This document shows positions 3,005 through 23,061 of a stretch of 37,163 bases of DNA, piece after piece; within the stretch, counting starts at the first letter, position 1; each line of letters starts with the position of its first letter. The position numbers were made by a program, and so were the translations under genes. The stretch comes from a virus, in the UHGV virus genome UHGV-0392283; one strand, given 5' to 3'. Under the pieces are notes generated by a model. The model did no database searches. It was given only the letters and a program-made list of their open reading frames with translations, and was not told the origin of the DNA.

Positions 3005-3190
3005 CTACAATTGAAATTATAACACTTTAACATTGAGATTACAATGTTATTTTATCTGACCATAACTCAATAAAGAAATATATTGAAAATTCAATGTTTT
3101 AATGTTGAAAAAACAATTTATAAATGTTATAATTAGTATATAACGAAGTTTAAATTGAAATTACAATGTTATTATATTGAAATATAAATA
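3005..3190. repeat. parC-like centromere repeat array upstream of parM
   Basis: Multiple copies of ATTGAAAtT and ACAATGTTAT with inverted AACATTG partners (3011-3054, 3082-3110, 3122-3130, 3154-3185), immediately 5' of the actin-like ATPase gene. Confidence 0.5.
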
Positions 3191-3204
3191 AAGGAGATGT
3201 TTTT

Positions 3205-4113
3205 ATGGCACAAATAATAGGATTAGACATAGGTAGGGGTTACGTAAAGGGATATTCAGAAGTAAATGGATTAACTAAGGAATGCATGTTTAAATCAATT
3301 ATTGGAGAAGGTAGAGAATTAAATTTTAAGGATTATGAAAATCCAATAATGATTAATTATGAAGGTGAAGATTGGTTTGTAGGACTTTTAGCAGAAGAAG
3401 AAAGTCAAACTCCTATAAGAAATAGTAAAGATAGTAAAACTACTACTACAGCTCAGACATTATTAGCTGCTGCACTAAGTCAATTAGCAGTTGAAGAAGA
3501 AGTTAAGATCTTTCTAGGAGTTCCTTACAAATCATTTAGAAAATCAGTTAGGGAAGATGTAATAGCAACATACAAAGGTAAATCAATTAAAGTTAAAGAT
3601 AGGATAAATGGTGGAATTAAAGAAGTAAAGATATCTGATATAAATATTCTTAGAGAAGGTGATGCTGCTTTATATTGGCAAATAAAAGGGAAAAACTGTA
3701 ATGAGAAACCAGTTGGACTTGTTTCTATAGGTTTTAGAACTACTGAAATGTCTTATTTTGATAAGGGATTAAAATTTAATGATAAAAAATCTGATACAAT
3801 AGAATTCGGAAATAGATCAGTAATGAATAATGTTAAAGATAAATTACTTAATATGGACATAATAAAAGATATAAATGAAATAGATACTAGTAATGATTAT
3901 GATGATATGAAGAAAAAAGCTTATAAAATAGCATCTGAAAACATTGAGCAACAAATAGAAGATAAATGGGTTAATTTATCTGAGATGGATATATATATAG
4001 CAGGTGGTACAGCATTAAATATGAGTTTTGATAATAATTTTAAAGTTATTGAGGATGCTCAAATGGCTACAGCTAAAGGATTATGGTTAGTTGGAAATGT
4101 AGCTTTTAAGTAG
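3205..4113 (+). CDS. parM: Actin-like plasmid segregation ATPase (ParM/Alp family)
   Basis: N-terminal IIGLDIGRGYVKGY phosphate-1-like motif. ~300 aa. Followed by a small RHH gene and preceded by the repeat array. RBS AAAGGAG. Confidence 0.65.
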   Translation: MAQIIGLDIGRGYVKGYSEVNGLTKECMFKSIIGEGRELNFKDYENPIMINYEGEDWFVGLLAEEESQTPIRNSKDSKTTTTAQTLLAAALSQLAVEEEVKIFLGVPYKSFRKSVREDVIATYKGKSIKVKDRINGGIKEVKISDINILREGDAALYWQIKGKNCNEKPVGLVSIGFRTTEMSYFDKGLKFNDKKSDTIEFGNRSVMNNVKDKLLNMDIIKDINEIDTSNDYDDMKKKAYKIASENIEQQIEDKWVNLSEMDIYIAGGTALNMSFDNNFKVIEDAQMATAKGLWLVGNVAFK

Positions 4114-21299: not shown

Positions 21300-21908
21300 T
21301 TAAGTTCTTGTTGCTGCAACTTCTTCAAAGGCGACAGTTTTTAGATTTTTACCATGTTCAATTTTTGTTATCTTTCTATCTGTTATCTTTCTTCTAACTT
21401 GTTTTTTTACATAATAGTTTCCATGATGTACTAGGAATGTTTCTGGATAATAATAATTTGACGCTTTTGCCAAACATAAATGTATATATAATTTTTGCTT
21501 AACTAAATAAAATATCATATTAGATTTTATTAAAGTACCTTCTTCCCCATCATTTACTTTTAATTTCTTTTTGTTGAAAATAACAATTTTTTCATTATAA
21601 AGTAGGTCTTCAATTAAATAAAACCATTTCAATTTATCTTCAATCTTACTAAAATACACACTTTTAGATATTATTGAATAATCTAAATCCAAATTAGTTA
21701 GTTTTTTATAAATTAAAGATGCTGCAACCTTCTTTTCTGACAAATCTTTTAAAATTTCAATATCTTTTAATTTATGTAATCCAAGCAAATGTGGTAAATT
21801 TGATGGTATAATTTTAACTCTAAAATGATAATTATTATCTAATTTTAAATTGTATATTTTGCATTCTACATTTTTAAATGCTTTAACGCTTTTTTCTAAA
21901 ACATCCAT
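21300..21908 (-). CDS. Hypothetical protein (202 aa from M7). Possible nuclease (H..GLHK motif).
   Basis: GGAGT RBS 8 nt before the ATG at 21908. The track's upstream ATG at 21926 has no RBS. No recognisable family. Confidence 0.45.
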   Translation of the reverse strand: MDVLEKSVKAFKNVECKIYNLKLDNNYHFRVKIIPSNLPHLLGLHKLKDIEILKDLSEKKVAASLIYKKLTNLDLDYSIISKSVYFSKIEDKLKWFYLIEDLLYNEKIVIFNKKKLKVNDGEEGTLIKSNMIFYLVKQKLYIHLCLAKASNYYYPETFLVHHGNYYVKKQVRRKITDRKITKIEHGKNLKTVAFEEVAATRT

Positions 21909-21934
21909 TTTTATACTCCAAAACATAAATAAAG

Positions 21935-21963: not shown

Positions 21964-22215
21964 TATAAACAAGTTATGAGCATTTTTTATGTTTCGAGTT
22001 TCCTCTAGCTATAAACAGGATCATGCACAACCATCCTACTATCTCCACACTCACCTTATAGCAAGGCTAATGCTTCTTAGATAAAGCCACCATTTCACTT
22101 ACCTTATTTAAGCCCCTGTAAGTTCAGAAGGGGACATGTGGTGACACACGTTAGTAAGTATTCTACACATACATACTACAAGTATTTTAAATAAACTGTA
22201 ATTATTTAAATTACA
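21964..22215 (-). ncRNA. Candidate ~250-nt structured leader or ncRNA. A GC-enriched ORF-free segment between a consensus promoter and the attenuator hairpin.
   Basis: No ORF on either strand. GC content is visibly higher than the flanks. Internal hairpin GCCCCTG...CAGGGGC, and AGGUGAG / GGAGAUA motifs. No tandem repeats. No confident riboswitch match by eye. Confidence 0.3.
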
Positions 22216-22220
22216 ACTTT

Positions 22221-22249
22221 ATTATAAACCCTTTTACAACTATTGTCAA
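22221..22249 (-). promoter_or_regulatory. Consensus sigma-A promoter on the minus strand (TTGACA-17 bp-TATAAT) driving the leader and the 21908 gene
   Basis: Minus strand reads TTGACAatagttgtaaaagggttTATAAT. -35 at 22244-22249 and -10 at 22221-22226. Confidence 0.45.
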
Positions 22250-22269
22250 ATAAATATTTTTCATATAAT

Positions 22270-22303
22270 AAAAAAGAACCTAGCTTGTACACTAGGTTCA
22301 TAT
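22270..22303 (-). terminator. Terminator hairpin GAACCTAG...CTAGGTTC (copy B), after toxN
   Basis: Near-identical to 21251-21284. Lies directly 3' of the toxN stop. Confidence 0.55.
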
Positions 22304-22306
22304 ATA

Positions 22307-22840
22307 TTATTTTTTAATATTTATTTGATTTGAAATTGCTGAAACTTCTTTTTTCTTACAATAATTATTATATGCTATTTCTAATTTTCTAAAATCACAG
22401 CAGTTTTTATAATTATAATCTTTTTCATTACAGCCCCATTTGTAAACTCTTTTTGCTAATTTTTTAATTGCCTCAGCGTTTTCTCTACACCAAGAAAGTT
22501 CTTTTCTAATCAAACTTATACTTTTAGTATTCCAATAATTATTTATAATAAATCTTTTCACAACAGTATCATTTACTGGTATCATAAAACATAATCTAAC
22601 CGAACCAACTACAACTAATTCTTCTGAGTATTTATCTCTAACTTTTATTAATAAATTTGTTTTTTGCTTTATAGGAAATGAAGATACCGGAGCAAAATAT
22701 TTAAATCCATTAATTTCTAAAATTATTCCAACATAAAACTTTGTATTTTTATATTCATAATCTGATACACTAGAATCTCCATAGGTTTTTAAATATTCTA
22801 AATATTTAGTATCAACCTCATAAAAATCTAATTTACTCAT
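22307..22840 (-). CDS. toxN: ToxN/AbiQ-family endoribonuclease toxin (type III toxin-antitoxin, abortive infection)
   Basis: MSKLDFYEVDTKYLEYLKTYGDSSVS...KNTKFYVGIILEINGFKYFAPVSSFPIKQ matches the ToxN/AbiQ N-terminal signature (FY.V...Y..YL...D..V...K...GI.LEI.G..Y.AP.SS). RBS AGAGG. An upstream terminator and repeats fit the type III architecture. Confidence 0.65.
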   Translation of the reverse strand: MSKLDFYEVDTKYLEYLKTYGDSSVSDYEYKNTKFYVGIILEINGFKYFAPVSSFPIKQKTNLLIKVRDKYSEELVVVGSVRLCFMIPVNDTVVKRFIINNYWNTKSISLIRKELSWCRENAEAIKKLAKRVYKWGCNEKDYNYKNCCDFRKLEIAYNNYCKKKEVSAISNQINIKK

Positions 22841-22864
22841 AATATACCTCTTAATATTAAAAAA

Positions 22865-22886
22865 AGAGATAGAAAAAACTATCTCT
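22865..22886 (-). terminator. Terminator hairpin (AGAGATAG aaaaaa CTATCTCT plus U-run) between the repeat region and toxN
   Basis: 8-bp perfect stem. On the minus strand it is followed by uuuuuuuaauauuaa and then the toxN RBS. Mirrors the attenuating terminator between toxI and toxN. Confidence 0.5.
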
Positions 22887-23030
22887 CTGAATTATAGTCC
22901 TTCTAATCTTTATAGAGCGAAGGGACTCTGAATATATATACTATTTTTTAAGGAAACAGAGAAAACCTTATATTATTCCGTTTTTAAAAGGACAGAAACC
23001 TTTGAATTATCTTTTTATGATTTAATATTA
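22887..23030 (-). ncRNA. Candidate ToxI-like antitoxin RNA: about 3 degenerate ~34-44-nt tandem repeats
   Basis: On the minus strand the units each begin ATAAT(T/A)(C/T)A. R1 is ataattcaaaggtttctgtccttttaaaaacgga, R2 is ataatataaggttttctctgtttccttaaaaaatagt, R3 is atatatattcagagtccc... . R1 and R2 are ~70% identical. Much more degenerate than characterised ToxI arrays. Confidence 0.3.
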
Positions 23031-23061
23031 TCATTTACGTAAATAATTTGTCAACTCCAAA

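Follow-up and report, generated by a model that had tools for sequence, protein, structure and literature searches.

The 37,163-nucleotide virus genome UHGV-0392283 (the window, meaning the whole stretch of DNA analyzed) is a Clostridium perfringens phage-plasmid, in which a toxN gene and the RNA leader upstream of it form a toxIN locus. The hallmark by which type III toxin–antitoxin (TA) loci are found and defined is a series of near-identical tandem repeats that precedes the gene for the toxin. The units in the leader of the present locus are not of this kind; what a first-pass annotation had called degenerate repeats is, as judged from sequence comparison, better described as three non-identical, individually conserved units, each of which appears capable of forming a pseudoknot. 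We consider it likely that the locus is a functional type III toxIN cassette with heterogeneous, pseudoknot-capable antitoxin units, and that C. perfringens phage-plasmids and prophages carry it as mobile cargo. The window combines ParM/RepA with phage structural genes, and the 36-kb plasmid NZ_CP120752 matches it best. The cassette lies on the minus strand, and its coordinates are given in the direction of transcription.

The toxN gene (22840–22307) encodes a 177-residue protein, predicted from Pfam, PADLOC and Protein Data Bank (PDB) sequence and structure matches to be an endoribonuclease toxin of the ToxN/AbiQ family, as the first-pass annotation had supposed. A profile search matched its product to PF13958 (ToxN_toxin) over the full length of the profile (positions 1–159 of 159, E = 1.3e-33, 116.9 bits against a cut-off of 25), and the PADLOC AbiQ model matched at 5.5e-32. 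A phmmer search of the PDB returned every ToxN-family toxin of solved structure, namely ToxN_Pa (4e-16), ToxN_Ec (1e-14), AbiQ (7e-12) and ToxN_Bt (1e-9), with an identity of about 26–30% to ToxN_Pa and ToxN_Ec. The AlphaFold2 model of the toxin (pLDDT 87.1, pTM 0.83) has ToxN_Bt, ToxN_Ec, ToxN_Pa and AbiQ as its top four Foldseek matches in the PDB (E = 4e-9 to 7e-7), with TM scores of 0.65–0.76 to 4ATO, 7D8O, 2XD0 and 4GLK. Membership in the CptN or TenpN families is not indicated, since ToxN_toxin was the sole Pfam match above its curated cut-off, and the CptN structure 4RMO (TM 0.34, E = 0.03) fell far below the ToxN-family structures. The active-site residues of ToxN_Pa and ToxN_Ec are Lys33, Thr52, Ser53 and Lys55 (PMC8860590). 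In the phmmer alignment, the first three correspond to K34, S53 and S54 of the window toxin; S53 also corresponds to Ser51 of AbiQ, and S54 is invariant in a nine-sequence family alignment. Among orthologues, the dN/dS ratio of toxN is about 0.1–0.4. By these comparisons, the locus is a genuine type III toxIN system of the ToxN/AbiQ family. A truncated ToxN version of 137 residues (P0005; 84% identity over 72% of the query) occurs on 21 C. perfringens contigs, including one of 3.3 Mb, and may be an inactivated or split copy.

The cassette runs on one strand in the order promoter, RNA array, rho-independent terminator and toxN (ATG at 22840), which is the canonical toxIN order and bears out the architecture originally proposed. 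A sigma70-like promoter (23054–23025) was found by a scan with 10–11 of 12 matches. Its −35 element, TTGACA, begins at 23054 and is invariant in all orthologues; it is followed either by an 18-nucleotide (nt) spacer and TG-TAATAT or by a 16-nt spacer and GATAAT, so that the −10 element ends at 23025–23027. From this position we infer that transcription starts at about 23018. The expected rho-independent terminator, a hairpin of 10 base pairs (bp) followed by a T-run, was located by a terminator scan directly upstream of toxN at 22888–22863 (fold −11.7 kcal/mol, z = −4.6). Sequence reading places a ribosome-binding site, AAGAGG, at 22852–22847, 6 nt before the ATG. A second terminator, with 9 pairs and a T-run (22299–22276, from the same kind of scan), lies 3′ of toxN and ends the cassette. 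The 220-nt leader contains no open reading frame (ORF) of 20 or more residues in any frame. In Rfam 15, the leader region 22841–23061 had no match up to E = 10, and a search with the whole window gave no match to the leader at gathering score.

The limits of the cassette (23057–22250) were defined from shared homology boundaries. In three unrelated sequence contexts, namely beside an integrase in L034, beside a tail tape-measure gene in L040 and in L047 (L numbers denote loci in our collection), homology to the window starts at 23054–23057 and ends at 22249–22264. They fall at the promoter on one side and at the second terminator on the other. Because the same boundaries recur in the three contexts, the segment from promoter to terminator moves as a unit. 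Directly upstream of the cassette in the window is a serine recombinase gene (23646–23062, minus strand), assigned by Pfam (Resolvase N-terminal domain, E = 1.6e-32, and HTH_7). A recombinase is also found upstream in L036–L039, a tyrosine integrase in L034 and the tape-measure gene in L040; since the upstream neighbors differ, the insertion site of the cassette is not fixed.

Between the promoter and the first terminator lie three complete units and a partial one. U1 (23007–22974, 34 nt) reads AUUCA-AAGG-UU-UCUG-U-CCUU-UUAAAAA-CGGA-AUA. U2 (22973–22934, 40 nt) reads AUAUA-AGG-UUUUCU-CUGUU-U-CCU-UAAAA-AAUAG-UAUAUAU, and U3 (22933–22893, 41 nt) reads AUUC-AGAG-U-CCCUUC-G-CUCU-AUAAAGAUUA-GAAGG-ACUAUA. 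U4 (22892–22859), delimited by the terminator scan and the fold, is a partial unit (AUUCAGAG...) fused to the terminator. The near-identical, TRF-detectable tandem array of 1.9–5.6 copies that is typical of the ToxIN family was not found here. Tandem Repeats Finder (TRF) at default settings reported no tandem repeat in the leader, and an exact-seed search returned a single 11-nt pair (ATAATTCAGAG and ATAATTCAAAG, 115 nt apart). Blower et al. 2012 relaxed the TRF settings to accommodate "more variable" antitoxins. With their lenient setting of 2/3/5, an array with a period of 34 and 2.5 copies was detected at 23017–22935, spanning U1, U2 and part of U3 (66% matches, 12% indels, score 83). Of 1000 dinucleotide-shuffled versions of the leader, 19 reached this score. 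U1 and U2, which are about 76% identical, agree at 26 of 30 aligned positions, a similarity matched by 45 of 1000 shuffles.

The first-pass annotation had described about three tandem units of roughly 35 nt, some 70% similar, each starting with ATAAT(T/A)(C/T)A. Three full units are indeed present, with lengths of 34, 40 and 41 nt and without a default TRF hit. The start motif holds at 23010 for U1 and at 22976 for U2, while its third occurrence, at 22895, belongs to the partial U4 and U3 starts differently, with ATATATTCA. The similarity stands for U1 and U2 and does not extend significantly to U3. The expectation that the units are less alike than characterized ToxI repeats was correct (66% TRF matches against 97–100% in pECA1039 and an Enterococcus faecium plasmid).

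Despite their different sequences, U1–U3 follow a common layout, which consists of an (A)AUUCA-type 5′ tail, two interleaved complementary segments and an AU-rich 3′ tail. The 5′ tail of U2 is AUAUA in the window and AUUCA or AUACA in orthologues. Within the core of each unit, the elements are ordered as in an H-type pseudoknot: stem 1a, stem 2a, 0–1 nt, stem 1b, loop and stem 2b. Stem 1 is AAGG/CCUU in U1, (A)AGG/CCU(U) in U2 and AGAG/CUCU in U3, and stem 2 is U(U)CUG/CGGA(A), CUGUUU/AAAUAG and CCUUC/GAAGG, respectively. The stem sequences thus vary between units yet remain complementary within each unit. The ToxI template comprises two pairings of 3–4 bp, a 1–2-nt loop between 2a and 1b, and a variable loop between 1b and 2b (≤7 or >7 nt) (Blower et al. 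2012); the loop lengths of U1–U3 agree with it. In a pseudoknot search constrained by this template, dinucleotide shuffles equalled U1 in 3 of 300 cases, U2 in 1 of 300 and U3 in 15 of 300. U1, U2 and U3 each have the sequence capacity for a ToxI-type pseudoknot with stems of 3–6 bp and a 2a–1b loop of 0–2 nt. A long-range pairing of GUCCUUUU in U1 with AGAAGGAC in U3, present in the minimum-free-energy fold, was rejected, as orthologues carrying GACC break it.

The limits of the units follow from the same complementarity. Each 2a segment is complementary solely to the 2b segment of its own unit, and orthologues with CAGAA disrupt an alternative pairing of U1 2b with UUCC of U2. A register running from AUUC to AUUC is therefore favored. 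AbiQ and ToxN_Bt cut within A-runs (A↓AAA and A↓AAAA, the arrow marking the cut), and ToxN_Pa and ToxN_Ec cut AA↓AU within GAAAU. A register of the AbiQ/ToxN_Bt type was considered and is less likely, as it would split 2a from its 2b. The junction of ToxI from pECA1039 reads GAAAUUCAGGUG, and a UAU↓AUUC junction is kept by many more distant relatives. By analogy, cleavage probably takes place at AUA↓AUUC, and at UAU↓AUUC at the U2/U3 junction. Perfect repeats suffer from circular-permutation ambiguity, which non-identical units remove. Because each 2a pairs only with its own 2b, both the processing register and the tails that would contact the protein can be read from the sequence.

The conservation of the units carries the argument further. 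Orthologous toxN genes (75–95% protein identity) were collected from plasmids, an IMG/VR contig, metagenomes and chromosomal contigs of 1.1–1.75 Mb. The ordered, non-identical series U1-U2-U3-U4 is present in every C. perfringens orthologue recovered. A homologue whose toxin is about 57–58% identical (L043/L044) has recognizable U1′, U2′ and U3′, an extra U3-type unit and U4′. Among the C. perfringens orthologues, the Jukes–Cantor divergence (K) of the U1–U3 block is 0.01–0.07, against a synonymous divergence (dS) of toxN of 0.10–0.96 and a nonsynonymous divergence (dN) of 0.02–0.16. Between the window and L040, for example, dS is 0.70, dN is 0.15 and the array K is 0.027. Along the leader, K amounts to 0.214 in the promoter/5′ segment and 0.153 in the segment with terminator and ribosome-binding site; it is 0.055 in U1, 0.047 in U2 and 0.013 in U3, where the leader is best conserved. 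These divergences indicate purifying selection on each of the three units, and stronger selection than acts on the amino-acid sequence of the toxin.

Compensatory changes point the same way. In a nine-sequence orthologue alignment, 91% of the cells in the proposed pseudoknots are paired, and five pairs have changed on both sides. The covariation score of 0.150 was reached by none of 500 shuffles, and sliding the partners by 1–3 columns lowers the pairing to 41–64%. One pair in stem 2 of U1 (columns 67/84) is U-A, U-G or C-G among the orthologues. Both stems of U2 are paired in all nine orthologues (100%), with one-sided changes from G-U to G-C. U3 shows two double compensatory changes relative to L043, from A-U to U-A in stem 1 and from C-G to G-C in stem 2. 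This support from compensatory change is real but thin. A decaying array, one of the two readings first offered, is rejected because the order of the units is conserved, their K is low relative to the dS of toxN and to the flanking leader, and the stems have changed in a compensatory manner. A ToxN-family system can thus retain an antitoxin of differing units over long evolutionary time.

The search for further orthologues had a limited yield. A scan of genome contigs for diverged orthologues recovered relatives of about 35% identity only. A protein scan of viral contigs gave one orthologue, and a scan of viral contigs with a 15-mer from U2 gave chance matches and that same contig only. The metagenome scan added one further orthologue and many distant relatives. 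One locus (L036, 1380–1420, GCA_030319865.1) carries a 20-nt tandem duplication (two copies of AAAAAATAGTATATATATTC) at the U2/U3 junction, copying the 3′ part of U2 and the 5′ tail of the next unit; it is possibly a snapshot of unit gain.

Several observations weigh against a functional cassette with heterogeneous, individually selected units. In the toxin, the equivalent of Lys55 falls at a loop indel, where K58 and K60 are candidates but are insecurely aligned. U3 has no significant sequence similarity to U1 (637 of 1000 shuffles as good) or to U2 (202 of 1000); for this reason, its assignment as an antitoxin unit comes solely from motif, layout and conservation. The template-constrained search has low power, as the authentic ToxI_Pa fails it (84 of 300 shuffles). 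Folding with nested pairs only is weak apart from the terminator (leader z = −1.9; U1 and U2 about −3 kcal/mol with z near 0). U1 and U2 hold runs of 5–6 A residues in the proposed loop, so that cleavage might instead follow an A-run register. The covariation derives mainly from one divergent lineage (L043/L044) and a few single substitutions, and the pairing statistics are inflated because the structure was derived from the same sequences. Finally, the low divergence of the leader could partly reflect recombination that uncoupled it from toxN. In L034, toxN is 96% identical to that of the window, and the leader is 90% identical and matches the array of L001; this locus looks recombinant.

It is also possible, although we regard it as unlikely, that the array is partly decayed, with a single working unit, most plausibly U3, and with U1 and U2 as relics or spacers. 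Such a state is conceivable because a single ToxI repeat suffices to neutralize ToxN in characterized systems, and natural single-unit loci occur in a Treponema clade. U3 is the best conserved unit (K of 0.013 against about 0.05 for U1 and U2) and contains the two double compensatory changes that are clearest; for non-identical repeats, work on tenpIN has raised this question as well (PMC12283969). However, conservation of U1 and U2 exceeds that of the promoter and terminator parts of the leader 3–4-fold and is far higher than that of the synonymous sites of toxN. The U1 stem 2 pair varies as U-A, U-G and C-G and is always kept, and U1 and U2 singly fit the pseudoknot template better than U3 does. 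The homologue of about 57–58% identity also has counterparts of all units and one more.

It is considerably less probable that the leader is a regulatory 5′ untranslated region, acting as an attenuator or as an element of mRNA stability or translation, with ToxN controlled in another way or inactive. Such a role would be compatible with the lack of an Rfam family, with the lack of strong thermodynamic structure besides the terminator and with a repeat similarity that is marginal by sequence alone. Nevertheless, the gene order and the ending in a partial unit fused to a terminator are those of canonical toxIN loci, and the layout and AUUC tail also occur in the arrays of perfect repeats that belong to related toxins. 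No other candidate antitoxin gene travels with the cassette when it moves as a unit, and toxN is under purifying selection (dN/dS about 0.2), whereas an uncontrolled RNase toxin would not be tolerated. That the units are chance similarities in AT-rich intergenic DNA is highly improbable. In favor of chance, default TRF is empty, lenient TRF yields comparable scores in unrelated AT-rich DNA, and the start motif of 8–11 nt, when mismatches are allowed, occurs in the window at chance frequency (ATAATTCARAG with two mismatches, 87 found against 89 expected, a count that is uninformative in such DNA). Against it, the units are conserved far above neighboring non-coding and synonymous sites and show compensatory changes, the two exact copies of the 11-mer ATAATTCARAG in the 37-kb window both lie in the toxN leader, and the layout is homologous to the perfect repeats of relatives.

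For the functional toxIN cassette, we propose the following mechanism. A single promoter would drive the leader, which contains the three complete non-identical units U1–U3 and the partial U4 that runs into the terminator. Most transcripts would stop at the U4 terminator, providing an excess of RNA, and read-through would give a smaller amount of toxN mRNA. ToxN would then cut the precursor at the AUUC unit junctions, by analogy with GAA↓AUUC in ToxN_Pa and ToxN_Ec, and would stay bound to the single-stranded tails of the processed 34-, 40- and 41-nt pseudoknots. The resulting ribonucleoprotein would be inactive and would necessarily mix different RNAs. If infection by a phage or loss of the element, for example, ended transcription, the RNA would decay and ToxN would be freed to cleave RNA, with abortive infection or addiction as the presumed outcome.

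It is conceivable, if doubtful, that the three RNAs are non-redundant, either as parts of an obligately heteromeric closed complex with ToxN or through divided labor. In the latter case, one unit would, for instance, be a tight inhibitor, and units of differing stability or affinity would set the trigger threshold. If the RNAs are non-redundant, diversification of the units would have been selected because it keeps the array from collapsing by recombination on a phage-plasmid prone to it, or because it confers resistance to phage-encoded pseudo-ToxI mimics. The natural unit variants provide a mutational series for questions of RNA recognition by ToxN and of mixed ribonucleoproteins.

Among C. 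perfringens phage-plasmids, non-identical units were found independently a second time, in the same hotspot of a sibling plasmid (L002, NZ_MK275623 p5, 3173–3400, minus strand). This second array belongs to a different ToxN/AbiQ toxin of 207 residues and has the arrangement A (51 nt), B (35 nt), A (51 nt). Its units have a common stem 1, GGU/ACC, as in ToxI_Pa, and differ in stem 2, which is GUUCA/UGAAC in one and UUUCUC/GAGAAA in the other, yet is internally complementary in each. This A-B-A array hints at a host- or element-specific pressure.

Of the cassette, only the terminator stretch after toxN (22299–22276) also occurs in the sibling plasmids MK275623 and CP075986, whose cargo at this position is different. 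The variable cargo site lies downstream of the recombinase (22250–22320 in the window) and has an equivalent in L002, L003 and L036–L040. It holds toxIN and PBECR4 in the window, a different toxIN and a SEFIR-domain protein in MK275623, and PBECR4 and SEFIR in CP075986. KwaA/KwaB (Kiwa) genes directly follow toxN in L036–L039, and PBECR4 nuclease genes are found in the window and L040. This neighborhood suggests a role in a defense island. The occurrence on large chromosomal contigs and the Kiwa and PBECR4 neighbors favor mobile defense cargo, with addiction also possible. The locus thus marks a variable defense hotspot on C. perfringens phage-plasmids and prophages.

The PBECR4-domain nuclease of the window is encoded by an ORF at 21300–21926 on the minus strand (PF18813, E = 1.5e-7). 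Its leader of about 290 nt lies between a perfect promoter (TTGACA-17-TATAAT, 22249–22221, minus strand) and this ORF; at 21975–22083 on the minus strand, it matches the orphan drum RNA motif (Rfam RF02958) over the entire length of the motif, with 42.2 bits (gathering score 43) and E = 1.1e-6. Weinberg et al. 2017 report that drum RNAs occur together with certain proteins encoded nearby and have no known function. No drum RNA was found near the PBECR4 genes of the sibling loci. Drum and PBECR4 could be a second pair of RNA and nuclease beside toxIN.

How unusual the window array is was judged from a survey of 102 loci encoding ToxN relatives, including distant metagenome relatives. Strict TRF settings detected arrays in 51 loci and lenient settings in 73, with no hit in 29; the matches ranged from 100% down to 62%. 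In a Treponema clade, a single conserved, pseudoknot-capable unit lies between promoter and terminator without a tandem repeat. Such loci occur in Treponema/Spirochaetaceae metagenome-assembled genomes (L005, L006, L008, L011, L015 and L021), where the unit, (U)AAGG-AUA-UCGCG-C-CUUUA-AU-CGCGA, precedes toxN by about 100 nt. They would be missed by any definition of type III TA systems that relies on repeats. The description of the window array as unusually degenerate therefore holds against characterized systems and not against this survey, with its matches down to 62% and its single-unit clade. Within a wide natural range, the array sits at the divergent extreme and is not a new kind of system. 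According to the survey, leaders with imperfect arrays or even a single unit seem to be common among ToxN relatives; therefore, repeat-based searches under-count ToxN systems.

The closest toxins outside C. perfringens (43–47% identical) are encoded on 3.8-kb plasmids of E. faecium (e.g., NZ_LR135381), in Sporosarcina and in metagenomes. Their arrays consist of about three copies of a perfect 34–35-nt repeat, a partial copy and then the terminator. The repeat reads (U)AAUUC-GAG-UUUA-UGG-xx-CUC-AxCAAAA-CCA-tail. The E. faecium, Sporosarcina and metagenomic arrays share with the window the (U)AAUUC tail, a stem 1 of 3–4 bp, an interleaved stem 2, an A-rich loop (AUCAAAA in these relatives, UUAAAAA here), a period of 34–35 nt and the partial last unit with terminator. 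Their units are 94–100% identical copies, whereas the C. perfringens lineage has diversified its units and keeps them distinct.

Comparison with ToxIN of pECA1039 (Pectobacterium atrosepticum) and of Escherichia coli (7D8O) shows the same toxin family and fold (TM 0.65–0.73). The order of promoter, RNA units, partial unit, terminator and toxN is also that of pECA1039. In both pECA1039 and the window, an AUUCA 5′ tail is followed by stem 1a (GAAAUUCAGGUG in pECA1039, AUAAUUCAAAGG and AUAAUUCAGAG here). The unit lengths here are within the ToxI range of 31–46 nt, and the two-stem pseudoknot template applies. In contrast, pECA1039 has 5.6 copies of one 36-nt repeat with 97–98% identity, compared with units of 34, 40 and 41 nt, differing stems and 66% matches here. 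The junction is AUA↓AU here and GAA↓AU in pECA1039, and the host of the present phage-plasmid is Gram-positive.

AbiQ/antiQ of Lactococcus lactis and ToxIN_Bt of Bacillus thuringiensis pAW63 are likewise Gram-positive members of the ToxN family and provide the best structural matches (4ATO, TM 0.73–0.76; 4GLK, TM 0.71–0.76, for ToxN_Bt and AbiQ, respectively). Their arrays are also short, with about 2.8–2.9 units of 34–35 nt. AbiQ and ToxN_Bt cut in A-runs and have near-identical repeats, whereas the 2a/2b complementarity of the window units argues for cutting at the AUUC junctions.

Among the described type III systems, the repeats of toxIN and cptIN are said to be nearly identical, and non-identical repeats, with up to 35% variation, have been reported for tenpIN only (PMC12283969). 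The tenpIN loci resemble the window locus in having non-identical units (up to ~35% variation) that TRF misses and that are nonetheless able to form H-type pseudoknots, and both raise the question of whether every unit is functional (Sci Rep 2025, PMC12283969). Their toxins are of another family, TenpN, and their units are longer and usually two in number. Moreover, the core of tenpI is reported to be conserved and its tails variable (PMC12283969), whereas in the window locus the tails are conserved and the stems of the core vary with compensation.

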